Shown here piece by piece: positions 13,401 to 50,216 of a stretch of 64,000 nt of DNA; position 1 is the first letter of the stretch; every line of letters starts with the position of its first letter. The notes beneath the pieces are model-generated. The model was not told the origin of the DNA, did not search any database, and saw only the letters and a list, made by a program, of their open reading frames with translations. This DNA comes from Haliotis cracherodii (lineage: Eukaryota): positions 57,722,001-57,786,000 of the forward strand of contig NW_027266308.1 of NCBI RefSeq assembly GCF_022045235.1, in the 5' to 3' direction. The position numbers and the translations under genes were made by a program.

Positions 13401-16400
13401 GCCCCTACAACCCCACCCCTTGTGTTCCTCAAACCACCCCTCAGCCCCTACACCCCCACCCCTTGTGTTCCTCACAGCATCCCTCAGCCTCTACAACCCC
13501 ACCCCTTGTGTTCCTCACAGAACCCCTCAGCCCCTACACCCCCGCCCCTTGTGTTCCTCACAGCATCCCTCAGCCTCTACACCCCCACCCCTTGTGTTCC
13601 TCACAGAACCCCTCAGCCCCTACACCACCACCCCTTGTGTTCCTCACAGCACCCCCTCACAGCACAGCACCCCTTCAACCCCTAAACCATCACCCCTCAG
13701 CCCCTACACACTCACCCCTTGCGTTCTTCACAGCAACCCCTCAGCCCTGACACCCTCACCCCTTGTGTTCCTCACAGTACTCCCTCTCCATAAGCCCCTA
13801 CACCCTCACCCCTTGTGTTCCTCACAGTACTCCCTCTCCATCAGCCCCTTCAGTTCCCTCAGCTGTAGGAGGAAGTCCCTGTCCAGGTCCACGTCCATGT
13901 CCTCGTGTTCCGTACATTCTGCAACAGACAGCATGATGTACAGTGGTTAGTGCGAGCTTTATGACCACTTAGCAGTAAGTCCTTATTTATCACCCACCTG
14001 TAGAACTATAGAAGCAGTTAGCACACAGACTGAAGTCCATATATATCACCCACCTATAGAGTTATAGAACCAGTTAGCACACAGGCTGAAGTCCATATAT
14101 ATCACCCACCTATAGAGCTATAGAACCAGTTATCACACAGACTGAAGTCCAAATATATCACCCACCTATAGAGCTGTAGGACCAGTTGGCTATCATGTAG
14201 TTAGCACACAGGGTGAAGTCTTTAAACTCCAGATACATCAGCTTTTTCTTCCCCGTTTCGAATCTGTTGTTAGTGATGAACACTATTGCTGCATAGCTCC
14301 TGGAGAGAGATTCAGAACATTTCACTAACTTTCAACCATGATACTGCATATCTGTCAGACAGGTGTTAGTAGGTTGTCATGTTGACCAAAGTAATATGAA
14401 GATTCTGCAAATCAACCCCTCCCAAAAACAAGCACTTCCCAATCTCATAACCGCTATGCAAAGATCGGAGGACATCCCACTAAAGGTCACGTTGAAGGAC
14501 CTCTTGCAAACATTGGAATCAGTCACACAGCCTGTCACTGCTGTTCAGAATGACCCGTGTTTACCATTTCAAGGTTACATGATTAGAAAACACATTTGAA
14601 CTTTCACTTTCGCGATCTTGTAGGCAACATGAATGGTCTTTCTGTGAAGGGATGTCCTCGGATTTTTGAGTTGTGGTAGTGAGCACTCAGATCTGATGTT
14701 GATGAGATTAAAGCAATTCCAGAAAAAATAATCCCTTGTTTAAAATTCATCAATTATCTATACAGTTTTTACCATCCGTCTTTCATCCTATTTTCCCATC
14801 CAATAAGCCAGTTGGTGCTGAAAGCAGTGAAGACAATATTACCTTGCCAGTTCCCCAGACAGAAGGTAGTGGGTCTGGATGTTCTCCACAAGGGAGCCTT
14901 TCATCTCCTCCACTGTCTTGAACACACGCTTCACATTGTCAAACTGAANNNNNNNNNNNNNNNNNNNNNNNNNNNNNNNNNNNNNNNNNNNNNNNNNNNN
15001 NNNNNNNNNNNNNNNNNNNNNNNNNNNNNNNNNNNNNNNNNNNNNNNNNNNNNNNNNNNNNNNNNNNNNNNNNNNNNNNNNNNNNNNNNNNNNNNNNNNN
15101 NNNNNNNNNNNNNNNNNNNNNNNNNNNNNNNNNNNNNNNNNNNNNNNNNNNNNNNNNNNNNNNNNNNNNNNNNNNNNNNNNNNNNNNNNNNNNNNNNNNN
15201 NNNNNNNNNNNNNNNNNNNNNNNNNNNNNNNNNNNNNGGCTTTATTCAGCAGCCACTTTACAGCTGTACCATGAAGTGAGTTTGATAACCCAATCTGGAC
15301 CAGATAAACTGGCTGACAGCATGCGCACCACGTCATGACATCGTAGTCTGATGACGCATGATCCCCAAGGGGCATCAACACTAGTCTGTTCTCACAACAA
15401 ACATGGGGTGCTGGGGGCTAAGCTGCCCCCAGGATATCCACAGGGTTGCTGCACAGTGACTGCATGTAATGTGACCAGTTTCCAACAACTCCCAACACAG
15501 CTACGATACTATATTTGCTGTAATAAGCACCTTGGATACTTTAAACATCAAAGTGAGTGAGCATCAAAATAATACACAACAAATTAAAATACGCTGTCAG
15601 AGATCGAACGGTAGGGAACTCTATTTAGCTCTAATGTTGATCAAACTAAAACAAATTTGATGATAGTTACTAGACAGTTATGTACCCCGTTTACACTGCT
15701 GTTTTCTGTTAACGATCTGTAATGTGCACAATAAAATATGGACTGTATTGCAAATTTTCAGGCGTGTTTAAAAGTTACTTACAGAAAAGTCTAGATATTG
15801 GTCAGGGGATGCTTATTGGAGCGGAGAACTTAATGCGGCAAATACAGTAACTCCCAAATGGGTAACAAAACAGTGAACACTATACGTTGTCAACCTATCT
15901 TGAGGGGTATATGGTGTGATGTACCCTGTGTGTGAGTCTATGTACACAGAGCCATCAGTTGACAGTGAATTTATCTTACTGACATTCATTCATTCTTACA
16001 GGTCCGCAATTTGTGTCCACAGTTTCACTGAGTTAGCAAAATTCATAGCAGACGATGCAAACAAACCGAGTTACTTCCCTTTACCCAATTAATTCGGGTT
16101 AACATCAGTTCATTTCAGCTCAACGATACTTAATCGATATATGCAAATTACCTACGATGTGTTCCGACTGATTTCTCAGCAGGCGACATGAGCGGGATAC
16201 CTGAAAAGTAATTTCCCACTCCTTAACCAATCAGAAGCTGGTATTTAAATGTGAGGTGAGATAATGTGTTACTATACATTAAGCACTGTGTGATGTAACC
16301 TACCTGTCTCCGACAACTCCGCAGCATCACTCCCGTCTTCTCACTCACATCATCAAGATCCTTGCGGTGTCTGGAGTTCAGTTTCTTTCCCAGTATCTCT

Positions 16401-33616: not shown

Positions 33617-33886
33617 CTCCTTAGAACGATTATAGTTTGAATTTTGTTAAAACCAAAATGACGTCTTGAACATTAAAACATTTGAAAATGATTGGATTTT
33701 GTCATTATTTTGTTCTTGATTTTATCTCAAATGTATTTTGTGACTTATTTACGCGATTTTGCGAATCATTTAAATATTTGATATTCTATTTATATATTCT
33801 ATTAATAATGGAATAAGAAAACTATTTGTTGGAAAACATTGCTTCCACCACAGTTCATTGTTTTGCCATGTTTCAGTTGGACCAAA

Positions 33887-36800
33887 TATTATAGGCATAA
33901 AATAATAGATAAAAGAATAGTAATTAACAAGTCATTAAGACACTCATAGTAATTATATAAATAAACAAGCTGAGGGGCTAACAGAGTAAGAAATAGGTAT
34001 AACACATGGGAAGATATAGGAAGGGCAGGCGATATAGGAATTGAGGAGCACAGGAAACATACTGGGCCACTAGTAACCAGGGGTGACAGTAGTGGGTCGA
34101 GGGTCGGAGTACCAGAGCAAAACAATAAAAGTATCATAGCAAGGGAATGTGCAGGTTGCCAGAGACAAAATAGATTGGGAGAGGAAACGTAGAGGAAATT
34201 GCCCTCGGGTTCATAAATGGTTTTGGGGGGAATAGTCCAGATTCCGGGGGTTGAGGTGGTTACATTACCACAAGTCCTAAAAAGGACCTTGAGGTGAGAC
34301 AAGAGTGGGTTAGAATCATCTAGTGTAGTGGGGAAAGGTGGTTAACAATGATACATGGAAAAATGAGTAGAACTGTGACGTAGGTACCGATTTAAAAAGG
34401 GACAAAAGCCCCAGAGCGGGGAGAGAGGCGAGAGAGCGGCTGGGGAGACGACAACAGGACTGGTGCTCCTAGAGCGGCAGCCCAGAGCACTTTGGTCAAA
34501 CGAACAAGGTACCAATATCCGAACACAGGAACATTTTCTGTGTAACCCAACATATTCATATATGGATGTCTGCCGGGGAGCCCCTGCTGCGTGTGGCCCC
34601 TGGCCCCCCAAATGAAGGGGCCATTCAAGGGCTGGATCAAACATTGGAGGTACCACATGAAAGTAAGTGTAAATGAACTGTTACATATCACAGAGTACAG
34701 AATGGGCCACGCCAGACAAATCTTCCTCTGCAAAAGGCCTGCCAGACACCCCCAAAGAGGGTCCCAAAATATGGGCTGGGTTAAACATTGGAGGTACCAC
34801 ATGAAATCAACATAAAATGAACTATTTCACTCTACTAAGAATAAAAACCCCATTGCCAGACAAATCGTCTGCTGCATAAGGCCCGCCAGACACCCCCAAA
34901 TGTTGACCCTTAATGCACTCAGTGGACACTCTGGTAAAATTTGACCAGAGTATACATTCAAAGTACCAGATGAAAGTAAGTTTAGATCAACAGGTACATG
35001 TTACTGAGTACAAGACGGCCCATACCTGACAAATTGTCCTCTGCATAAGGTCCGCCAGACCCACCAGAGAGGGTCCCAAAATTTGGGCTGGGTTAAACAT
35101 TGGAGGTACCACACTGGGGGGTCGCGCCTTCAGATTATAACAATTGCAATACAAACCAGGGGGGTCCAAGAAACAGGTTCTCATGACCTGCAAGTATGAT
35201 CATGTTAATTCTAGTTCAAGTGGGAAATCACGCCATTAAGATAATTACAATGCCAAGACAAACCAGGGTGTGTCAAAGGAAGGTTTCTCACGACCTTCAT
35301 GTATGATCATGTTTATTCAGTTCAAAGTGTTTTATGATTTCATAAATGCTTCAAGTTATATTGTGATTATAACGTCAGTAGCACTATTATTAAGATTTCA
35401 TATTTGCAATCAGAGGTTGGCAGAAAAGAAAAGGCTAGGTGTGGTTTGGAAACGGCTTTTCTTTTAACAAAAGAATTCACATTTGTTTGATAACACAGCT
35501 CTATGGTAACAATGATAGGGAAATTTATACAAAATTCAGTCAATCGTGACAGATCAACAATTGCTTGTTTAGAATTTAGTGTTGTGGAAAACACCCTGAA
35601 TGGATCAGGTTAATGCAACCTTTCTTGGCATTTTACCGGGAGGTAAGAAAAGTTTTCCCGGGAAGCTTGATGTCGATTTCTCGAGAGAAGTGACGTGCTC
35701 GTCACACACCTCAGAAAAAAAAGAAGTTAAATTTATTGTGTATGGCTTTCCCTTCTTTATTGAGGGTATTCAAAAACAGATATATATATATATGTACACT
35801 AGGTCATCCTGGGATAGAAGTCTAAACACATTTAACCGTGGCACAGCTCACGCGCCAATATCATGACTCTCTGTATAGTGTAAGACGTTTATTCAAACAC
35901 ATAGATGGCAAATCTGAGACGTAAGGCCTTGTGAACATTTAGATATATAGTGGAGGTTTCATAACAGATATTTGAGTATTGAAATCAAAACCATGTCACA
36001 TTATGAACATACATTTACATTTAACAACAAGAACAAAATCATAAAACATGATGGGTAATTACATTTCACATTTGGTGGTGCGATAGTTTTGACGAGGTGA
36101 ATATCAGTAACGGCCCTTCTCCAACCGTGACACTCCGAGAAAAGTTTTGAAGATCAGGACGAAAATACATCAAGAATAGAACATTCATCTTTTCGTGTCA
36201 CCAAACCCTGTTCATCTCTTTCCGTGACCTGACAAACTTGATATTTTCACACAGGTCTGTGCCACGATTTTGTTAGGTTTCTCGATACGATAAACTTTTC
36301 GGGACCGACCATAAATATTGAAATATTTGGCCGGAATTCAGCTTTTTAGATGATAAAACTTGCTAAATAAACGGAGATCATAGGTTTTTAAACACAATTA
36401 TCACCAAAAGATTTCCAAATGGTATTAGGGACTGTCATTTACCATTCTTATAGCAGGCTTTGAGGACTACCTAAGCATGTTTGGGTTTGTAGGAATCCAT
36501 AGCCAAGCTATCAGGCTATAGCAGGCTTTGAGGACTTCATAGCTGATCAGATATATATTCACAAGAATCAGATTCATGCCTTTTTTTATTACATTTCAAC
36601 GATAGGCCTAATCTATGATATCAATACTAGTATTCAGAGACCTGATTTTATAAATACGTGATTTTAATCTCAATAAAATCCTTCCATCTTTAAGAACAAA
36701 ACATAAATTTGACCATCTGTTGACTCTCAGAGCTGATGTCCAATGTTTCATTATGCACACTGGGATTACAGAGGGTCAACTGTGTGGGGTGGGGTGAGGG

Positions 36801-38202
36801 TCTGTCTAGCGGGCCTTATGCAGAAGAGGATTTGTTTGGCAATGGGTATTTTGTAATAAGTAGAGTGTAATAGTTCATTTTATGTTGGTTCCATGTGATA
36901 CCTCCAATGTTTAAGCCTTATGCAGAGGAAGATTTATCTGGTGTGGCCCATTCTGTACGCTGTGATATGAACCTGTTCATTCAAACGTACCTTAATGTGG
37001 TACAATCGATATATATTCCAGACCAATTTTACCCGTGTATACCTGAAGGGTCAACTTTTTGTGGGTGTCTGGCGGGCCTTATGCAGAAGATGATTTGTCT
37101 GGCAATTGGTATTGTGCAATAAGTAGAGTGCATTTTATGTTGGTTTCATGTGGTACCTCCAATGTTTAACCCAGCCCAAATTTTGGGACCCTCTCTGGGG
37201 GGTCTGGCGGACCTTATGCAGAGGACAATTTGTCAGGTATGGGCCGTCTTGTACTCAGTAACATGTACCTGTTGATCTAAACTTACTTTCATCTGGTACT
37301 TTGAATGTATACTCTGGTCAAATTTTACCAGAGTGTCCACTGAGTGCATTAAGGGTCAACATTTGGGGTTGTCTGGCGGGCCTTATGCAGCAGACGATTT
37401 GTCTGGCAATGGGGTTTTTATTCTTAGTAGAGTGAAATAGTTCATTTTATGTTGATTTCATGTGGTACCTCCAATGTTTAACCCAGCCCAAATTTTGGGA
37501 CCCTCTTTGGGGGTGTCTGGCAGGCCTTTTGCAGAGGAAGATTTGTCTGGCGTGGCCCATTCTGTACTCTGTGATATGTAACTGTTCATTTACACTTACT
37601 TTCATGTGGTACCTCCAATGTTTGATCCAGCCCTTGAATGGCCCCTTCATTTGGGGGGCCAGGGGCCACACGCAGCAGGGGCTCCCCGGCAGACATCCAT
37701 ATATGAATATGTTGGGTTGCACAGTAAATGTTCCTGTGTTCGGATATTGGTACCTTGTTCGTTTGACCAAAGTGCTCTGGGCTGCCGGTCTATCCGCTCT
37801 CGGCCAAAAAGCCTCGAGATCGGGAGAGCGGCTGGGGAGACGACATATGGACTGGTACTCCGTTCTCGGCTTGTTGTCACGATCTTTCGAACCAGCATTT
37901 CGACCGAGACAGAAGCTTTGCGGCCGAAGTCTCGTATTTAAGTGACAAGTAGAGTTGGTTGACCGGCAACACAAAATGGGAATAAAAGCTGTTAAACAAA
38001 GATCACTCTTTGTGCTTGTTGGAGGAACTATGGTAATAGGTCCAAGGCCCTCGGGTACTGACATTGTACCTCTCGCTCATCCCTGACTGTCAGCACCAAG
38101 AACGAGGGGATTACCGTAGTTAGGTCGTAGATGTACACGAATTGCCACCCTGGTAATTAACAACAATTACCGTCCCTTATCATCTTAAAAATACCTTGGA
38201 TA
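33887..38202 (+). repeat. 5' LTR, split into 33887..34469 and 37793..38202 by a DNA-transposon insertion
   Basis: The two halves concatenate to match 47848..48848, with roughly 6 substitutions and one 11-bp indel by eye. Confidence 0.92.
34470..37792. mobile_element. Non-autonomous long-TIR DNA transposon (Academ-like)
   Basis: 644-bp TIRs (34470..35113 and 37149..37792) built of ~155-bp subrepeats; TAG...CTA termini; 3-bp TSD TCC confirmed by the uninterrupted 3' LTR; no transposase ORF. Superfamily inferred from termini and TSD only. Confidence 0.8.
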
Positions 38203-38204
38203 CG

Positions 38205-38224
38205 TGGTGGACTGATGCGGGGTA
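38205..38224 (+). promoter_or_regulatory. Primer-binding site, tRNA-Ala-like
   Basis: TGGTGGACTGATGCGGGGTA starts 2 nt after the LTR; resembles the complement of the tRNA-Ala 3' end (TGGTGGAGATGCGGGG) with a 2-nt insertion. Confidence 0.7.
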
Positions 38225-38268
38225 CGATCTTCCCTGACGACTGCCAAAAAGCATTGTCAGGTGACGGC

Positions 38269-38485
38269 GTGCAGTGGTTGCACAAGCGAGGTAACGTTGC
38301 GCAGCGGTTGCGCAAGTAAAGTGGAACTGTGCGGCGGTCGCACAAGTGAAGTGACGTGGTGCAGCGGTTGCACGAGAACTTCCACTGTGGGGAACTCAAC
38401 AGTCGTTGGGAGGAACAGTGCAGACGTTTGCACATCCGGAAAGGTGCAGACGTTTGCACATCCGGAACGGTGCAGATGGTTGCAC
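38269..38485 (+). repeat. Seven short hairpin repeats in the retroelement leader (4 x 30 bp, 3 x 26 bp)
   Basis: GTGCA-N5/6-TGCAC palindromes at 38269, 38299, 38329, 38359, 38418, 38444 and 38470. Confidence 0.8.
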
Positions 38486-40411
38486 ATCCACGGACCACTC
38501 CGGGCTTACAATGGAGGGGCTTTCGGAGAGACGAGCGGATGGTTACACCTGGACCCAGTGGTGGAGTGACGTACCAGGAAGTGATGGACAGAACTAACAA
38601 TTATGACATTTTAACATTTTGTGTGGTGCCAAGTTTCATTGGATCGGGCCTGGTTAGGTAAGCAATATTTTGATGCATTGTGTTACATATTGTAAAAGAA
38701 CGAGATCCTTGAACATAATCATGCCACTAACACAAGACTCAAACAATAACGGTACAACTGTCGATCAACAGTGTCGGCGTGGGTCGGCTTTATTTTCTAT
38801 GCCACTCACAAGTTGTAGGGTCGTATGGCAAGCCGTTTTAGGGTCGTTCCATCTGACCTAGTGAGCCGAGCACTAGCGCTCCGGTAGCATACCAGTCTCA
38901 TGGTGCCAGTACGCTCGGCTTGTCGAGTTAATTGAGAAATAATTGCTCCTAACAACCATGAAGAAAACATTTCCCAATGAAATTCCCCGCACTCAATCAT
39001 TGCGCTAAAAAGCGCCAATGACCTTATGGACATAAAACAACCAATGTTGAGCCATTTACTTACTTCTTACAAGTGGTATAGTGGCTATAATTGGTCGAAA
39101 CAAGGATGATTTTATCAGGGATCTTGTTCTTGGAAATGCATCTCAGAATGTAAAAATATTTGTGATTACTAGACGATATTCTACACTTGCTAAAGTTATT
39201 TAGAACACAGCTTATGCTGCCGGGTCCCCTCAGTTTGAGTCAAAAGTAATCATGCAATACACTTACCGAGTGAACAGGTGGACTAGCCCACTAATTCGCG
39301 ACAATCTTCACTCCAACCAGTAAATGTTGTTAATATGAGCACGGACTTGTATAACTTGTTATATAGGTCCGTGATATGAGCCAGTACCTTTGTGCCCAAA
39401 CACCACAAGACACACACACCTACCTAGAGCCCTAGAGACACATACACAGTCAACATTTTACTGTCCTCAGAATAACAGTCATAATCCAGGGAAAACCACA
39501 ATGGCAGTGGTGGCCGTTTCACCCAACAGGGAAATTTTACAAATAGAGCAGAAAGTGTCCACCATCCCCCGGTCGACAATACACGTGTGGAGGAGGTGGT
39601 ATACAACACTCAAATGCAGGGTTTCGCAAGTTACTCACAGCACACTTTGTGACACAAGCCTAAAGGTTCAGGTTCGATGAGGCAGACTAGTAATTTAGTA
39701 GCATTATGGTATTTACATGTCAGAAAAACCAAGATAAAAATATTCTTATATAGTTCGTTTTAATTGAACTTCTCCCCGTTGCATAAATATCACCAGAAGA
39801 CCAGAGCATCAATAGTAGGTAGCACTGGGCGGAAACATGATGTCCAAAGGACCTGCAGGGGTATGAACACCGTTGTAGGTCTATTAAGATAATTCTTATT
39901 ATGTCAAATATTGAATTCAGTTTATTAGTTCTACTTCATGAAAAAAACAAAAACAACAAAAAAAGACCCCCCAAAAGACCTGAAAACAAACAAACAAAAC
40001 CTACTTGATTCGTTAATTAAAAACATTTGTTTATTTTTTTCATCAATGTCTACTGTGGTACCTCTGATATTTTCGTACAAAATTGACTTGATAAACGTTT
40101 GTAATAAAAGAGTTATATATTGTAATATGTGATTCCGCGTTGAAAAGCATTAAAAAGGCCAATGAACGAAAATCCAAATGGTTCAGCTACAAGTGGACCA
40201 ATATCTTTTTAATCTGCAGAACATAGATAAGATAATATTTATTGCAGAAACATTGCATTATGGGACTGATGCAATTTTGTAAAGATGAAACATTATGATT
40301 CATATATACATATATACAGACATACAGAATTTACATCCCGGTAGTCACAAAAAAAAATCAATATTACATATTTGATGATATTATTATACATAAAATGGCA
40401 ACGGTTGGATA

Positions 40412-40540
40412 GTTCGTCACGCTGAAGACCGTGTTCGATTCCCGACATGGGTATAATGTGTGAAGCCGATTTCTGGTGTCCCCGCCGTGATATTGCTGGA
40501 ATATTGATAAAAGCGGCGTAAAACTAAACTCACTCACTCA
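40412..40540 (+). mobile_element. SINE family A (5'-truncated) inside the LTR element
   Basis: GTTCGATTCCCGACATGGG...GCTGGAATATT...(ACTC)n. Confidence 0.8.
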
Positions 40541-41053
40541 CGCACACAACGGTTGATTAGAATGAAGGGGTATTTATTGTTTAAAATAATAGACATGGAA
40601 ACAAATGCAATTGATATTGATGGCTTCATTATTTGACAGGATGTATTGGAATAATCTGTTTTCATGGCTGTGAACATGTACATTTACATTTTGTGTGAAT
40701 AATTGCCCAAAGAGTATATTTCTTTCGTGAGCATTTTGGGTACAGTGAAATAGGTAGATCTTTCAATCATCAATGGTTAAACATGTAAAGCATAGCCTCT
40801 GATGTAGTGGGGTTGGTGGCTTTGTATGTCTTACAAGTTCAATATTTAATTTATGGTTCCTAATCTTATTTTAGAAATATAAATGTTTCGAAAGTTGTAA
40901 AAATAACATCAATATCAATACGTCAGACCTTTTACCTCTCCACTGCTTTTCAATAGATCACAAAAACCTGGCCCTTCCCCAATAGTAGACCGCCCAAAGG
41001 AGAAACCATGGCATGTGCTCAGGAATTCTTCTCTACCCCCTCCCCCCCCCCCA

Positions 41054-41108
<55 letters not shown>

Positions 41109-41526
41109 GATCTCTCTCTGGATCTTTCTCTCGATAAGCAACCCAACATAGATGTATCCGGTTATCAGGTTATAAATGACCACAGTGGTGCTGTTACCCC
41201 CTATTCATTAACAGTGCGCACCTTGCAAGCTTGGCACATTTGGCACCTCCGGTGGCCTGGCACTGGCCTCAGTGTCAGCTATCGACATGGATGCTAGGTC
41301 AAATAACCCCAAACACCCTGTCCCCACTGGTGATATGTCACCAACCTATGTGTCAATTATGGTAGCATTTGAAGGATCTCATGGTGGGTAGGATTTCAGG
41401 AGAGAATAGTACACCAACAAAAACTACCGAAATTCAAGCATAGCGATAGCGTCTGACCACGCCTCAAAACCAAAGGGGTGTTCACATAAAGATGTACATA
41501 TATTGATCCATTTGAATGAAGTGAAT

Positions 41527-42223
41527 ATGCCGACGAGATGGTTCTTGTCGAGGAGATAATGCCGACGAGATGGTTCTTGTCGAGGAGATAATGCTGACGA
41601 GATGGTTTCTTGTCGAGGATATAATGCCGACGAGATGGTTTCTTGTCGAGGATATAATGCCGACGAGATGGTTACTTGTCGAGGATATAATGCCGACGAG
41701 ATGGTTTCTTGTCGAGGATATAATGCCGACGAGATGGTTTCTTGTCGAGGATGTAATGCCGGCGAGATGGTTTCTTGTCGAGGATATAATACCGACGAGA
41801 TGGTTTCTTGTCGAGGATATAATGCCGACGAGATGGTTTCTTGTCGAGGATATAATGCCCACGGGATGGGTTCTTGTCGAGGATATAATGCCGACGGGAT
41901 GGGTTCTTGTCGAGGATATAATGCCGACGAGATGGTTTCTTGTCGAGGATATAATGCCGACGAGATGGTTTCTTGTCGAGGATATAATGCCGACGAGATG
42001 GTTTCTTGTCGAGGATATAATGCCGACGAGATGGTTTCTTGTCGAGGATATAATGCCGACGAGATGGTTTCTTGTCAAGGATATAATGACGACGAGATGG
42101 TTTCTTGTCAAGGATATAATGCCGACGGGATGGGTTCTTGTCAAGGATATAATGCCGACGAGATGGTTTCTTGTCAAGGATATACTGCCGACGGGATGGG
42201 TTCTTGTCAAGGAAGTGATGCCA
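41527..42223 (+). repeat. 33-bp tandem array (~21 units), each unit a stem-loop
   Basis: Unit AATGCCGACGAGATGGTTTCTTGTCGAGGATAT; stem CGACGAGA/TCTTGTCG. Confidence 0.95.
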
Positions 42224-42610
42224 ATAGGGTGATAATTAGTCATGTGAAGGGACAAACATGATTCAGTTATGTAGCGTATCATGGGATAGATAACAGGGGT
42301 GCCAGGATCAAGAACATGTTGCCTACCACCAGTGCGCAATGGGGGTGGGTGACATGTGAGAAACTGACATCAAGTAATAGGGGGTGCCTGCTACCATGGG
42401 ATTTAGCAAAGCATTTCAGCCACTGCACCGACACAATCACGCACAGGATACACGGACAGGATACACGGACAATGCACTGATAGGAACTTCACCTCACACA
42501 TAATAACTTGACATCTAGTACTGGAAAAAAAAATGTATATAATGAAGTTATTGCATCAATAGGACCCCAGATACTATCACTAAGGACATCTTTATCTGTT
42601 CCCAGGCGAG

Positions 42611-45142
42611 ATGTTGCTCTGGCTGTTGACGACCACCGCCCTAAGCCTGATTTGGAGTATACAAGGGACAATTAGTCTGGAGAATGATCTCCAGAGATTA
42701 CATTTTGGGGTTCTGTTTAAAAATTTGGGGAGACTTAAAACATACGACCAAACTTGGGTACACACATTTGCACTGACACTGCCGAAAACACTTCCTACAG
42801 ATCTCACATTCAAATTCCCGCGATGTGTCGCTGCATTTAAGGGTACCCCTGCCAGATGCTTACAGACAAAGGACGTAACGGAACCACTTTTGAATTACAC
42901 TCGGGACATACACCACGCCGCAACCCAACACATACAGGATACCCTTGACACCATCAAACACTTCATACCAGAAAGTACAGAACCTCAAAGCCAATCGCGC
43001 CAACAACGCAGCTTATTACCATTTTTGGGTACCATAGCTAAGGGCCTCGCGGGGGTCGCCACAGAAAGGGATTTAAAGATCATTGCGGATCATGTTAGAC
43101 TGCTAGCAAATGAAGTTCACCTACGCGACATAGCCTTTAACCTCACGGGGCACACCATGGCATCATATATGACTAAAACTAACTCCCGCCTGGATAACCT
43201 AGTAAGAATTGTAACGCTTAATCACAACCAAATAGTCCTAGCATCACAACGTAGCCTCCGGGAGAACGACTGGTACAAACAATTATTTGCCACCTTACTC
43301 ACATTAACCACACAACAGTTGCACCTTACCAATGAACTGAACGCACACGCACGGGACCTCCTGACCAGTACATCAAAACTCCTACAAGGCCAACTACCAC
43401 AAGAATTGATTCCATTATCTACGCTCAGAGTGGTAACAAATAGAATTCGACTCCAGTTAGCCTTACATTATTCCGACTTTGACCTCGTGCATAAGGACCC
43501 GCGTCAATATTACACCCAGGCACATGTGAAAGTCATCCGGAAAGGGGATATTCTTTTCCTGTCCCTATTAGTACCCATCACCCCATTCAAGGAAGCCACT
43601 ACCCTTTATCAGACCACAGCTATCCCAGTTCCATTACATGAAGACTCGAACGATACTACCATAGTCAAAAACCTTGCAAGATTCATCGCGGTGTCACAGA
43701 GGGATAAACGGTTTGTAGAGTTTACGAGGGAGGAGTACGACTCATGTATAGACACAACGACCACACAATGTAGTAGTCTACCAGCGGAAAGGAGCTTCGT
43801 AAATCCCACATGTACGCTTGCACTCATCCAGAATGATATCGATTTGGTACATGAATTGTGCAACTTCCACTTGGTACCCGATGGAGCGGAGTCACAACTA
43901 TACGAATTAGGTACAGGACAATTACTTCTCATTAAAATACCCAAATTAATCTACACATGCGCGAACGTAACAAAAATCCAGCAGGGATGTAATTATTGCC
44001 TGGCGCCTATCTACTGTTACTGCTCTATCCAAGCAGTAGGGAAGATGCTTCCCCCACGCCTTACTGGTTGCAGACAACCAGAAGACACATCCTTTGTAAA
44101 TTACACGTTAAACGTAGCCCTGCTCCGGCATTACTTTTCGACACAAGACATCCTGAAGAGATTACCGTCCTTAGTCGCAAAAGAACCAGTTGCTTACAAA
44201 ACGGCACCATTTCGATTGTCAAACGCTTCATTTACTAATCTGATGAAAACAGACACAAAAATCAGTATTAACTTAAAACATGCCGTCGCCAAAGCCAAGG
44301 CCAACGAAATTATATACACTAACCCGGCCGATCCTTTGTACCTGGATGCACTGACGAGTACTGAAGGGAACACCGATTGGTTCGGGGTAGTAGTCTATTC
44401 CACTTACGTAATGTGGGCTTGTATTGCTGTGCTATTCGTCTCGGTAGTTCTTACGAAACGTCGCATAGCGGCAATACAGGCACAACTAACTTTAAGAGCG
44501 GCGTTGGCCACGGCGGCGGGAATATCCATACCTCAGAATCCTTTGGTATGGACGCAACCTGCTACCGCCACCACAACAACCGACACGCCTGGTTTGTCGG
44601 CAGCGGCCATATTCAAACCCCTTTGGAATCTGGAAATGATGGTATTACTGTTGGTTATAATATTGTTCATAACACTGGCAATTTATTTCTACCGGGTCCA
44701 AACCAACCCCACCACGACGCTCTACCTAAGTTTCTCGACTCCACATGACAACCTTAGACTCAACCTCCTCAAGGTTGACGCCCCGCCGATGGTACTGTCC
44801 CTTTCTCAGTCACAATATATCCCGGAAAACATTCAGATTACACATCACTGGCTCACTTCCAAGATATACATCAAATGGCCCATGAGTAATGTGTCCCTGT
44901 GTAACACGCTTACAGATACCCAAATTGCCCTCCCTGTAGCACTAACTGTCCCTCGACATGTGGCTGGACGGCTGTATAAGGTCCTCCAGGGCAGATATTT
45001 ATTGTTTATGTACCTAGTACAATTTAGAACGACTTATCCTGTTTCGGCCGGACCCTCAAATTCCCATGCCAGTCAAACCCCAACAGCAAGTCAATACAAG
45101 GACAGATCGGGGGGCGGACTATATCCAGCGCTAAATGGTTAA
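42611..45142 (+). CDS. env: Envelope glycoprotein, class I fusion type (baculovirus F/errantivirus Env-like), 843 aa, intact
   Basis: N-terminal signal peptide; furin site RQQR (aa 130-133) followed by fusion peptide SLLPFLGTIAKGLAGVAT; heptad region; Cys-rich domain; several N-X-S/T sites; TM at aa ~590-614 and a second TM at ~676-694; lies between the LTRs. Confidence 0.88.
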   Translation: MLLWLLTTTALSLIWSIQGTISLENDLQRLHFGVLFKNLGRLKTYDQTWVHTFALTLPKTLPTDLTFKFPRCVAAFKGTPARCLQTKDVTEPLLNYTRDIHHAATQHIQDTLDTIKHFIPESTEPQSQSRQQRSLLPFLGTIAKGLAGVATERDLKIIADHVRLLANEVHLRDIAFNLTGHTMASYMTKTNSRLDNLVRIVTLNHNQIVLASQRSLRENDWYKQLFATLLTLTTQQLHLTNELNAHARDLLTSTSKLLQGQLPQELIPLSTLRVVTNRIRLQLALHYSDFDLVHKDPRQYYTQAHVKVIRKGDILFLSLLVPITPFKEATTLYQTTAIPVPLHEDSNDTTIVKNLARFIAVSQRDKRFVEFTREEYDSCIDTTTTQCSSLPAERSFVNPTCTLALIQNDIDLVHELCNFHLVPDGAESQLYELGTGQLLLIKIPKLIYTCANVTKIQQGCNYCLAPIYCYCSIQAVGKMLPPRLTGCRQPEDTSFVNYTLNVALLRHYFSTQDILKRLPSLVAKEPVAYKTAPFRLSNASFTNLMKTDTKISINLKHAVAKAKANEIIYTNPADPLYLDALTSTEGNTDWFGVVVYSTYVMWACIAVLFVSVVLTKRRIAAIQAQLTLRAALATAAGISIPQNPLVWTQPATATTTTDTPGLSAAAIFKPLWNLEMMVLLLVIILFITLAIYFYRVQTNPTTTLYLSFSTPHDNLRLNLLKVDAPPMVLSLSQSQYIPENIQITHHWLTSKIYIKWPMSNVSLCNTLTDTQIALPVALTVPRHVAGRLYKVLQGRYLLFMYLVQFRTTYPVSAGPSNSHASQTPTASQYKDRSGGGLYPALNG

Positions 45143-45948
45143 CATTTATACAATGAACACCTCCAAAGCAACCTTACAGGATAAGATTTGCTAGACAAAT
45201 AATACAAGTACTCAACAACAAATAAAATACAAAATAAAATTAAAACACGCAAGACTCCGAACAAAACAAAACTGTCCTTGTTATCAAAACAAACAAAACA
45301 ACAATAACAAAACAAACCCTACATTGGGCTCCTGCATATTCTACATCCACTTTAACACCCTAAAAGTTGTCCTTCGCACACACGTGGGCTATCAAGGTGA
45401 ATCAACACCGGACACAGTGGGTTACTTGGGTACATATACGTAAATACAAAAACAAAACAAAAAACAAAAACAAAAACAAAACAATGTTGGTTGGTACACT
45501 CATCTACGTCTGTACGTATCAGTTTGACAGGGGTGTTATCCCTGGAACTTCACATTCATACGATCCGTACGATAATTGGCAATATCTATATGTGCAGATA
45601 AAGCGTTGGTTGGTACTACCATCTACGTCGGTACGTATCAAGTTCGACGGGAGTCTCATCTACGCCGGTACGTATCAAGTTCGACAGGGGTATTACCCCT
45701 GGAACTTCGAGTCCTTACCCCTGGAACTTCGAGTCCTTGCAATCCGCACAATCATTCGAATCACCATACCCATATATAAAGGATTGACCGTTACTCGTAT
45801 CGCAGTCGTATGTGTTCAGTTCAACAGAGGTGTTACGCCTGGAACTACATTCGGCGACTACCGATCGTTACTTTAAGTGCAATTATATACATGATATTGT
45901 TAGTGTGCAATTATTAACATACATATTGGTTTGAAACCCTGTAACGTG

Positions 45949-47322
45949 ATGGATACGCAGACGGTTGAACATGTTGTGACTTCTTTTGATAACGAATTCG
46001 GCAAAACGACCGCCCCTGTTGTCATTCCGGAAAAATTATGGCGAAAATTGTGTCGGCTCTCCCTATTCTTTAAATGTCTTTCTGGCTACATATTTAATAT
46101 GGGAGAACATTGGGGCAAAACCCATTTAGCAGACGGAAGGTTCAAAACTTACAAACGTCGTCAGTTCACATTGAACCCTCCAATACTTTTTACGCCCAGC
46201 CCCCCTGATTTGGCCGACCGTATAGGAAGGGCCCTCTATCTAGCAGCAAACCCAGGACCACTGACCGATGTCCCCGAATCGTTAGGTATAGGAGCGGCCG
46301 TACTTTTAATGTACGGTTTATAATATGACTTACGAATGTTGATAGTATTAGGTGTTCAGACGGCAATCGGAGAATTGGACATGGCTATCCTTTTCCAATT
46401 ACAACAATTACAGACGGACATGGGTGCCGACCTACAGAGTTATACAGAAATATTCTGGCAGTTAGCGGATATTCCTAGATCAGTCATCGGACGTACTCTG
46501 TCCAAACCAATAACGCCAGAAGTACTAGGAAGCTTATCAATGGGAAGGGACCATCTCACTTGTAGGCGATCGCAATTGGCGTTACGGCATGTCTTGACGC
46601 GATGCGCCCTTTGTTATAAAGACACATTTCCGATGAATGATCAGGGAACAAATTTTCCAACGGTAACTTTTTGCAAATGGTGTCGCCGGATACAACACGT
46701 GGAATGTGCAGCCGCCCTGCTAAAACAGTCTGGCTTATCCTACCGCATAGTGACACTTAACGCAGGGACACCAAATGCCCGCCAGTATATAGAACTCGAC
46801 TTCCCTACAAGCCACTATTCGGAAGCATTCGACGTGCAGCCAGGGTTCCTGGAAGGTCGTGTTTCTCCACCTTTAGACCTCAGATTCAATTTAGATCAGT
46901 GTTCAGTCTGTAGGGTACCTTTTGGCTGTGATTTCATGGAGGTGCCGAGTGACATTCCACCTATATTGTACAAAAATCCGGCCTTCACACCGCCCAAACA
47001 TCCCCTTGATAGATTCGACGTAAGGACCTTCATGAATTATTTCAGATCGTCAACAGAACGAATACCACCGGGGAAACCGGTACGAATATATTTAAGCCTG
47101 TCGTCCCCTCCAATAGAATTTCCAAAAACATTGATGGACGAGACCAGACGCCTTATAGGTCCGCTCAATCGTAGGCTCGTAGAAACGAGGGCGCTACAAA
47201 TTAGACTGTTCTACCCTCCTCAAAGTTCAGACTTTTGGGACGAATATTGTTGGAACAAGGGGGTGTCAGTTACGCAGTTAGCAGACGGGTTGAATCTACA
47301 CAATGACCCCAACGAAACATAA
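45949..47322 (+). pseudogene. Retroelement accessory gene (~457 codons) with one in-frame TAA at 46321; C4HC3 PHD/RING-variant finger, possible N-terminal BTB-like domain
   Basis: Track ORFs 45931..46323 and 46336..47322 share a frame and are separated only by TAA TAT GAC TTA CGA; motif CALC-x19-CKWC-x4-HVEC-...-CSVCRVPF. Confidence 0.65.
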
Positions 47323-47786
47323 CATAGTTGTGCGGCAATAAGAATCGTCTCACAGAGAGGTCACACTTAATCAATGCGTCACCACCATCAATAGTTTATG
47401 TCTCTTAACTCTATAGTGTATAAATGTCGTTCTTAAGTAACATATTCCTTGTGTCCATCTGTGTACCCTGTGTGATTTATTGGTATTAAGGTTGTACCCA
47501 TGCATATAGTCAAGGATTATTACTCCTATTGCACCTAAATCAGTGCAAACTAGTACAAATATATGCAAATAGGTGTCTCATTGTTATTAGAACTATGCCA
47601 ATCTTTGTATATTAGACGTATATATCTATCGAAATTGTATTCACGTGTGTGTGTTGTTTGTTTTTTTTGCAATTATGTGTGTATTTTCTGTAATTGTTCA
47701 AGGTCAACCAGCACTATGGTCACACCCATTTATTTAAAACAGTACGTAACAAAAAAACAAAAAACATCCCAAACTGAACCAACCCA

Positions 47787-47847
47787 GATCCCCACGGCAC
47801 TCTACCTTAAGAGTGTGAGGACACACTCTTCGTCAGACCGGGGATCG
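47787..47847 (+). promoter_or_regulatory. Pre-LTR hairpin and short purine tract (plus-strand priming region)
   Basis: AAGAGTGTG-AGGA-CACACTCTT 9-bp hairpin (47809-47830), then GGGGAT-CG abutting the LTR; GATCCCC (~47788) can pair with GGGGATC. Confidence 0.55.
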
Positions 47848-48848
47848 TATTATAGGCATAAAATAATAGATAAAAGAATAGTAATTAACAAGTCATTAAG
47901 ACACTCATAGTAATTATATAAATAAACAAGATGAGGGGCTAACAGAGTAAGAAATAGGTATAACACATGGGAAGATATAGGAAGGGCAGGCGATATAGGA
48001 ATTGAGGAGCACAGGAAACATACTGGGCCACTAGTAACCAGGGGTGACAGTAGTGGGTCGAGGGTCGGAGTACCAGAGCAAAACAATAAAAGTATCATAG
48101 CAAGGGAATGTGCAGGTTGCCAGAGACAAAATAGATTGGGAGAGGAAACGTAGAGGAAATTGCCCTCGGGTTCATAAATGGTTTTGGGGGGAATAGTCCA
48201 GATTCCGGGGGTTGAGGTGGTTACATTACCACAAGTCCTAAAAAGGACCTTGAGGTGAGACAATAGTGGGTTAGAATCATCTAGTGTAGGGGGGAAAGGT
48301 GGTTAACAATGATACATGGAAAAATGAGTAGAACTGTGACGTAGGTACCGATTTAAAAAGGGACAAAAGCCCCAGAGCGGGGAGAGAGGCTAGAGAGCGG
48401 CTAGAGAGCGGCTGGGGAGACGACAACAGGACTGGTGCTCCGCTCTCGGCCAAAAAGCTTCGAGATCGGGAGAGCGGCTGGGGAGACGACATATGGACTG
48501 GTACTCCGTTCTCGGCTTGTTGTCACGATCTTTCGAACCAGCATTTCGACCGAGACTGAAGCTTTGCGGCCGAAGTCTCGTATTTAAGTGACAAGTAGAG
48601 TTGGTTGACCGGCAACACAAAATGGGAATAAAAGCTGTTAAACAAAGATCACTCTTTGTGCTTGTTGGAGGAACTATGGTAATAGGTCCAAGGCCCTCGG
48701 GTACTGACATTGTACCTCTCGCTCATCCCTGACTGTCAGCACCAAGAACGAGGGGATTACCGTAGTTAGGTCGTAGATGTACACGAATTGCCACCCTGGT
48801 AATTAACAACAATTACCGTCCCTTATCATCTTAAAAATACCTTGGATA
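47848..48848 (+). repeat. 3' LTR (1001 bp)
   Basis: TATTATAGG...CCTTGGATA; TATA-like ATTTAAAAAG at ~48351 and AATAAA at ~48627. Confidence 0.93.
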
Positions 48849-50216
48849 CAAATGGCCTACAAGAAGATTGAATTCATTCAGGATGCGTGCAAATAAGATA
48901 CATTCTATATGTAGCTAAGAGAAGAAACAAAAAGAACCCTCCTCTGATGTCCTCATATGTCTTCTGTATGAATGTGGTTCCTATGCTGTGAGTGAGTGAT
49001 TGATTGTGGTTTTACGCCGCTTTCAGCTATAACAGTGGGCTTCACACATTGTACGCTATGTGAGGAATCGAAGCCGGGTCTTCTGCGTGACGAGCGAACG
49101 TTTTTACGAATCTGCTACACTACCGCCCCAATCGTATACTGTGACGAGAGGAAATGAGAACTCAGCACGCCCAAAGCTATAATCGGTTGTTCGTATTTAC
49201 ATTTCATGCTTGTTGAAGGGATAACATTTACTTGAAAATCTACAGTCACTGTACTTGTGAAAGGGCAGCCATTTTGAACGAAAGACGGAACGTTCGTAAC
49301 ACGTTGGTGATAACGAGGTCTGTTGTGATTCGAGTGAATGTCAGTCAAGGGCGAGGAACAGAGTCAGTTTTGTAGGGGTATGACATTCTGGGGGAGGGGT
49401 AAGGGCTATACCGAAAAAAACCCGGTTCACTGGACATACTTGGTGCGTTCTAAAAAAATATAAAAAAAGTATTGTTTCAGAGAAAGACTATCGTTCAACA
49501 TGTCTGTGTTTGCCAGTGTAAAAAGTCCCCGATACTTATTGTTTACCCTACTGAGAGTAACCTTGTACTGAAGTTTCATTCAACAGCTACGTCCGTGTAT
49601 AGTTGATGTCACGCTCCCTGTGGAATTGTTGATTTAAGAATTGACCTTCACTTTGTGTGAGTTCATTGGGGTATGAACCTTCATAGAATGAGGGCCAAAC
49701 TGTATGAACGTCGGAGCTTGCAAAAATTGTGTCGTTCAAACACTTATAATTAAATTTTCTTTGGGTTCATTGAGATTCCTGCATTCTAATTAGATGAATT
49801 GGTCACGTGTTTTCGCATTTTATTCTTTATTTCACAATGAATGTAAAAAATTAAGCCACGCCCACCGAAGCGGACTACTTTTAGTACTACTGAATGTCGG
49901 GGAATCCAATATTACAGTCGAGGGATTTCACTCTCTGTTCACGTGTATCGTCATGCACAGGCCATTTAGCGAAATTCATGCACATTCATTGTCCATACAA
50001 CCCTTTGGGACCGAAGATTGAGAAGGAATGAAACAGCAAACGTGCAGGCTCGCTCGACTGTTTTTTTCCACAAGATTCATGTCTTTGGGTTTCATTACAT
50101 TTTCTAACAAGCATTTTTCCAACTGTGTCTTCCCGTTCTGAGGAAACTGTTCGAATCTGACGGCATCTGGCCATGTTTTTATAATGCAACGGCTAGCCAT
50201 GAGTCCTGACCTTTCC

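Follow-up and report, generated by a model that had tools for sequence, protein, structure and literature searches.

An envelope-carrying Ty3/gypsy-type lineage of abalone LTR elements carries a conserved accessory zinc-finger gene, placed after env as a fourth gene. We describe it from a copy in the window, by which we mean the whole 64,000-nt stretch of Haliotis cracherodii DNA analysed here. It is a genuine accessory gene, kept across lineages whose RT sequences are down to 57% identical. What is observed is the gene, its position, the selection acting on it, its persistence to that level of RT identity and its invariant zinc ligands; from these we infer a function, and the product stands somewhat less than an even chance of being, as far as its sequence can tell, a soluble counter-defence factor of ubiquitin-ligase or adaptor type.

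The gene lies within one LTR insertion, 33888-48849, whose features in window coordinates are as follows.

33884-33887 and 48850-48853, flanking both LTRs: 4-bp target-site duplication
33888-38203, forward strand: 5′ LTR, made of 33888-34469 and 37793-38203 and split by an insertion (LTR pair comparison)
39051-39349, forward strand: gag remnant (tblastn with sister-copy gag)
41440-42333, no strand assigned: 33-bp tandem array, found also in the C20 and C18 sister copies, there between pol and env (repeat search)
42611-45142, forward strand: env-like ORF, intact, 843 aa (place after pol in a sister copy, features by eye)
45949-47322, forward strand: accessory ("fourth") gene, 457 codons, with one TAA in the window copy (translation, sister copies, H. 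rufescens)
47849-48849, forward strand: 3′ LTR (LTR pair comparison)

Since the two LTRs are nearly alike, differing across 594+411 columns at 6 mismatched sites and by a single 11-nt gap, the insertion is recent. No pol was found anywhere in the window by tblastn with the RT and RH/IN of a sister copy. In G000:C20 (G000 being the searched genome), a sister copy has the order LTR, gag, RT, RNase H, integrase, 33-bp array, env, accessory ORF, LTR; its Pfam matches run Retrotrans_gag, zf-CCHC, RVT_1, RT_RNaseH, Integrase_H2C2, rve, and its LTRs are 99.9% identical over 919 bp. The carrier in the window is a recently inserted, pol-less copy of an abalone Ty3/gypsy-type, env-bearing LTR element. 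The initial annotation, made from the sequence of the window alone, had proposed an accessory gene downstream of env, and the ORF indeed sits between env and the 3′ LTR both in the window and in C20. The insertion that splits the 5′ LTR (34470-37792, 3.3 kb) has 644-bp inverted repeats that are 99% identical and looks like a non-autonomous DNA transposon. The 33-bp array is open in several frames.

The ORF at 42611-45142 is called env from its place after pol in C20 and from features recognised by eye, namely a signal-peptide-like start, an RQQR site with a hydrophobic stretch behind it, and hydrophobic stretches at the C terminus. It has no Pfam match and no PDB sequence match that would tie it to an F-type or gB-type envelope glycoprotein, and we refer to it as env-like; its end is 806 nt from the ATG of the accessory gene. 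The searched genome contains 57 env-like matches, many of them open frames of ~800 aa, at 22-39% identity, which make up a large and diverse set of envelope elements. At one locus (L074:5574-7376, G000:C24), three sense ORFs lie 2.5-4.3 kb past a distant env; they have no Pfam match at E 0.01 and resemble by eye Polinton-type packaging ATPase and core proteins.

In the window copy the accessory gene reads as 124 aa from the ATG at 45949, a stop codon, and 332 aa in the same frame (translation and ORF list).

46321-46323, forward strand: TAA, a nonsense change private to the window copy (sense in 10/10 other distinct covering copies)

Two same-frame ORFs had been joined in the initial annotation into one gene, interrupted either by a recent nonsense change or by a readthrough stop. 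The translation and two uninterrupted versions of the gene support its being a single one. A DNA search returned 13 places matching the gene in G000, the window among them, and the codon at 46321-46323 is covered by 12 loci. It is a stop in the window only and a sense codon at the other 11 loci, which correspond to 10 distinct copies (L008 and L013 overlap, and L012 does not reach the codon), so that the recent nonsense change is the option that stands. Among the 12 other places, one, L002 in G000:C20, is uninterrupted over its full length of 457 aa, at 98% nucleotide and 97% amino-acid identity to the window gene; the others have frameshifts or stops elsewhere. The H. rufescens protein LOC125382164 is likewise an uninterrupted 457-aa version, 95% identical, with a sense codon at the site of the stop. 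The ORF is not a chance one, because such 457-aa versions exist and because the frame is kept where synonymous sites are nearly saturated.

The stop was also sought in reads. In run X1, which may be the source sample, a 139-nt contig runs across the stop with 0 differences to the window, yet a second X1 contig has a sense codon there; in run X5 a contig near the stop ends 17 nt away, too near to count. Because the exact X1 contig crosses the TAA, it is probably true DNA and not an assembly error. The sole N stretch of the window, 14949-15237, is far from the gene. Were the TAA a programmed readthrough stop giving a short and a long product, the continuation of the frame past it would be accounted for, but the stop would be expected to be conserved, and 0/10 other distinct covering copies carry it; the H. 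rufescens version does not carry it either, and one copy of the more distant family C described below has a single internal stop of another kind, TGA, as random decay would give. Since the codon is sense in all 10 copies, we reject readthrough, which is hardly credible. The TAA is a nonsense change reflecting the decay of one non-autonomous copy; this is ordinary decay, and the splitting of the gene is incidental. Two runs guessed to be RNA cover 30/30 and 16/30 bins of 45900-47400, counts that, with neither strand nor a silent-region control, say nothing about expression.

The accessory protein is under purifying selection. Comparison of the window type (A) with a ~59%-identical subfamily (B) gave dN/dS values (Nei-Gojobori) of 0.15-0.18 in 7/8 segments, all eight being measured against that one subfamily and hence not independent, and the eighth was dS-saturated. 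Between the window and L002 the ratio was 0.40, and 0.37 for env. Window and C20 copies are ~97% identical over env and the accessory gene, with LTRs (L014/L016) only ~84-87% identical, and the C6 copies (L017-L019) join an A-type env to a B-type accessory gene; this mismatch in identity and these A/B mosaics point to recombination between subfamilies.

Of the 57 matches to env in G000, 20 env-relative loci were chosen, and 4.5 kb downstream of each was examined. Three of them, whose env is 33-37% identical to the window env, have an ORF of 467-473 aa ~1 kb past it (family C), which is 19% identical to the window type and matches the family profile at E about 1e-8 (1.4e-8 for the 467-aa one); the homology between the N-termini of A/B and C is not significant (E 0.12). 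At the other 17 no such gene was found within 4.5 kb downstream, several of these being broken or interrupted copies. The ORF was thus found in C20, in subfamily B and in family C, its presence in sister elements being one of the points on which the initial annotation had made its reading depend. G000 contains 39 family-C matches; three are open from end to end, and one copy has identical LTRs. In this copy, in G000:C67 (L148:6802-7718 and L069:6208-7124), the 917-bp LTRs are 100% identical and the env and accessory ORFs are intact, with no RT in the 10 kb fetched; it is a recently moved pol-less derivative, like the window copy. At L072:4338-10000 (G000:C1), opposite-strand ankyrin-repeat ORFs occupy the place where a family-C-type env would have the accessory gene. 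Further decayed lineages (L103-L105, L064, L012), at roughly 46-55% identity to family C and, in comparison with the window type, roughly 41% and 57%, indicate that there are more subfamilies than those analysed.

The RT of family C is 57% identical to that of the window lineage. Midpoint-rooted trees, in which 9/13 loci had enough RT and 9/13 enough RH/IN and in which family C is a long branch in RT, place family C outside A/B and two gene-less elements (support 92/94 and 100/99). These two env relatives, nearer than family C in both RT and RH/IN, have no such gene within 4.5 kb, so some lineages can do without it. An early gain followed by later losses is the simplest reading.

The protein family is a near-orphan: beyond G000, protein searches limited to forms of at most 800 aa turned up nothing but the H. 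rufescens protein and a single metagenome cluster. HMMER on 1.84 billion representatives returned only that protein and a metagenome fragment, whose cluster-mate P0006, with every one of the eight zinc ligands in place, is 29% identical over 232 aa (E 4e-22); a search limited to proteins of 89-436 aa returned P0004 only. The metagenome contigs of P0004-P0007 are 1-1.8 kb long, and in scans of metagenome and viral contigs 0/160 and 0/70 pattern matches were confirmed. The ORF might be a passively captured fragment of a host gene with no role for the element, as the broken state of most copies (1/12 other places uninterrupted) and its absence from some related env lineages would allow. Purifying selection and a position kept over RT divergence down to 57% argue against this, as does the lack of a host paralogue among the matches examined (the part of the matches inspected all lay in or beside element copies), and we regard such a passenger as very improbable.

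The protein carries a conserved zinc finger.

46603-46911, forward strand: C4HC3 zinc finger, C-x2-C-x19-C-x2-C-x4-H-x2-C-x64-C-x2-C, from C219 (invariant ligands, spacing table)

Its eight ligands, together with the Trp and the Arg of C-x-W-C-x-R, are invariant in 7/7 aligned rows from four lineages, which confirms the C4HC3 finger with CALC spacing of the initial annotation. The fit to PHD or RING-CH fingers suggested there holds for the ligand order; the choice between RING, PHD and C1 is not settled by Pfam, which puts C1_1 first. Our best reading of the sequence is a RING variant, ranked ahead of PHD and C1. The distal CxxC is kept while the spacer between ligands 6 and 7 goes from 64 residues to the 43 of family C, which favours a cross-brace. 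The 64-residue gap of A exceeds the X4-48 RING consensus given in the accessible part of PMC5972323, and the 43 residues of family C fit it. The CxxC-x4-HxxC spacing recurs in a host exon, L138, that passes Pfam zf-RING-like, and a hydrophobic stretch comes next in that exon. RINGs carry a helix after the sixth ligand, and a single-sequence AlphaFold2 model predicts one there, within its best-scored region (248-261, pLDDT 56-64). RINGs have a linchpin Arg just after ligand 8; it is present in A/B, but P0006 and family C carry Leu or Gln at that place, which counts against a RING. No Pfam RING model matched above its cut-off (best E 0.085-0.5); the insert may break local matches. In the ESM Atlas the whole protein comes closest to a RING cluster (0.86), which is no more than a lead.

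The same finger could belong to a nuclear transactivator or anti-silencing factor, in which it would be PHD-like and act on chromatin while a BTB-like dimer recruited co-regulators to the LTR or to an internal promoter. C4HC3 with C-x2-C-x4-H spacing fits PHD too, and Pfam gives the PHD-like zf-HC5HC2H_2 at E 0.002 and PHD at E 0.13-0.29. The place of the gene between env and the 3′ LTR recalls the foamy-virus layout, in which Tas is a transactivator of the LTR or internal promoter, and TATA-like sequences lie 49-179 nt upstream of the A, B and C copies, in AT-rich DNA and with no chance control. PHD fingers, however, have a hallmark Trp two residues before ligand 7, where the four lineages have Asp, Asp, Tyr and Leu; with Trp absent from all four and such Pfam PHD values, a PHD finger ranks below a RING variant. 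The predicted hydrophobic helix after ligand 6 and, as a lead only, the preference of the Atlas for RING over PHD also speak against a transactivator, which we consider doubtful.

A C1-type finger, which would bind lipid or membrane and aid the assembly or budding of virus-like particles, would make sense of the best Pfam match: C1_1 reaches 27.4 bits against a cut-off of 26.5 on the finger of family C, where, as in C1 domains, there is also a His 13 residues ahead of ligand 1. That match, however, spans profile positions 12-47 of 53 only. C1 domains have a leading His and a terminal Cys among their ligands, a pattern for which the host C1 exon L137 was used as comparison. The leading His is present in family C alone and not in A or B, no lineage has a Cys 8 residues after ligand 6, and the distal CxVC is invariant instead. 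The C1 pattern is thus not kept, in spite of the passing match on one family-C stretch, and a membrane-binding role is quite improbable.

A second candidate module lies upstream of the finger.

45949-46560, forward strand: N-terminal ~200-aa region, candidate BTB/BACK-like (by eye and language-model lead)

A BTB identity for this region is plausible, at about even odds. For residues 1-205, BTB clusters take the first three places in the Atlas, at 0.83, with BTB clusters at 0.76-0.83 overall; these too are leads only, and a third of shuffled proteins get to 0.8. Over residues 7-138, a low-confidence model (pLDDT about 30) has the order strand-strand-helix-strand-helix-helix, which is compatible with BTB, and some short local hhalign matches fall in the expected BTB register. 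The motifs picked out by eye in the initial annotation are present in the letters, but their BTB identity is unconfirmed: Pfam has no BTB match to the protein; an HMM of 29 host BTB sequences scored the L002 N-terminus at -0.3 bits, with 7/500 shuffles as high, and three other members at values matched by 187, 191 and 337 of 500 shuffles; and hhalign to BTB gave a probability of <1%, with 7-10/40 column shuffles as high in local mode. The Foldseek comparison proposed in the initial annotation returned 0 matches at E<=0.001 in PDB and BFVD, and a VIA-wide fold search gave a best Z of 4.0 and none at Z>=5; the AlphaFold2 models of the natural uninterrupted copy have a pLDDT of 37.9 alone and 31.1 with a 9-row alignment, and blanks from models of such low confidence exclude nothing. 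PDB sequence searches (P0001, P0008, A2, A5, A9 and env) found nothing under E 0.3. The host genome has a tandem cluster of about 15 single-exon BTB matches of ~200 aa at G000:C6:5346501-5461169.

Between env and the accessory gene lies a repeated hairpin.

45521-45549, forward strand: 29-nt bulged hairpin, copy 1
45678-45706, forward strand: 29-nt bulged hairpin, copy 2
45818-45846, forward strand: 29-nt hairpin, degenerate copy 3

The exact pattern occurs at 11 places in G000, all beside A/B gene copies, and at 0 for the reversed control; the window has 4 strand matches for 0.02 expected. The hairpin copies are the only A-vs-B intergenic matches, and in 10 rows 97.5% of cells pair, with three pairs varying one-sidedly to G-U. 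An RNA role for the hairpin is suggested by its sequence. The accessory protein could then be a Rev/Tat-like regulator that binds the hairpin and controls export, splicing or translation, and both the confinement of the exact pattern to the neighbourhood of A/B gene copies and the three pairing-keeping changes agree with this. Nevertheless, the hairpin is absent from 3/3 family-C spacers tested, though family C carries the gene; 0/12 pairs have a two-sided change, covariation equals that of shuffles, and folding of the entire leader does not surpass theirs (z -1.06). A search of 45100-48900 against Rfam returned 0 matches, and an RNA-binding domain was not detected in the protein. We find an RNA regulator of this kind unlikely.

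Under the ubiquitin-ligase or adaptor reading, the finger would be a cross-brace RING variant with an insert of 43-64 residues, and its part would be to recruit an E2. Dimerisation or Cullin-3 adaptor function would fall to a BTB/BACK-like N-terminal region, and a host protein active in restriction or silencing would be bound by the insert or by the conserved C-terminal region and so marked for degradation. Expression would be from a subgenomic RNA with the hairpins in its leader. The product may act in trans, in which case a pol-less copy would lose the gene at no cost, and this would explain the private TAA. Among 58 matches to host E2, no intronless one was found. More tentatively, this old mollusc envelope lineage may independently have become a "complex retrovirus", whose accessory gene would encode a self-contained BTB-plus-RING ligase that degrades a host antiviral or silencing factor. 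The gene would be expressed from a subgenomic RNA marked by a repeated hairpin of its own, and derivatives that lack pol but keep env and the accessory gene would still be spreading.

The accessory genes of complex retroviruses include foamy tas/bel and lentiviral vif/vpu. The abalone gene is like them in being an additional gene toward the 3′ end, and by analogy it is likely to be expressed from a subgenomic RNA and to act in trans against host defence; unlike them, it belongs to an invertebrate Ty3/gypsy-type element and not to a retrovirid, and no sequence similarity to them was found. The viral K3/K5 proteins and MARCH have C-x-C-x7-H spacing, and they carry transmembrane segments, unlike the predicted soluble abalone protein. 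The C4HC3 ligand order is shared with Nse1, described as a C4HC3 variant RING in the accessible part of PMC8750328, and with KSHV K3/K5, viral RING-CH ligases according to the same portion of PMC5972323 as above; the insert before ligand 7 and the lack of a Pfam RING match above cut-off set the abalone finger apart from both.

Capture of an ORF downstream of env is already known in LTR retrotransposons (PMC6431247, available portion), so the position alone is less unusual for a Ty3/gypsy element than the initial annotation implied. The same portion describes the planarian giant gypsy elements Burro/GYPSM1, with RING-type, BIR, MATH and ubiquitin-like domains. Like these, the abalone element belongs to gypsy and combines an env-like region with a ubiquitin-related domain, here a candidate RING; as compared by description, most of the Burro domains are part of a polyprotein of ~4,900 aa that lies upstream of pol, whereas the abalone gene stands alone past env. 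Captured extra ORF3s are also found in LTR elements of bdelloid rotifers, another invertebrate case (PMC5408684, accessible text), where the slot holds a GDSL esterase, a DEDDy exonuclease or env, whereas the abalone zinc-finger gene is additional to env. Chary and Hayashi ("ancient errantiviruses", PMC13524379, in the portion available) found env-carrying gypsy elements to be widespread, mollusc clades included, and their supplement lists Haliotis assemblies, with H. rubra entered as "yes - No intact copies". The abalone element shares with ancient errantiviruses the LTR-gag-pol-env-LTR layout in a mollusc and recent near-identical copies; unlike them it has a fourth conserved ORF after env. 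The main text of that paper, as far as accessible, does not contain "accessory", "zinc finger", "downstream of env" or "Haliotis". The Haliotis Troyka element (PMC12440569, accessible part) is unrelated, and the available portion of PMC6338049 has no mention of PHD, RING, BTB or ubiquitin. No description of the accessory gene was found in the literature searched; Repbase and subscription journals were outside its reach, and the gene may already have an entry in a repeat library.

Complex vertebrate retroviruses and large DNA viruses are characterised by accessory genes for counter-defence, whereas to our knowledge invertebrate envelope retroelements are usually described as gag-pol-env alone. 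In abalone, selection has kept a fourth gene in deep lineages of elements that are still mobile, which shows that such elements are able to carry a gene for regulation or counter-defence. Should the product be a ligase, the substrate would reveal a mollusc factor of restriction or silencing, in a little-explored field.
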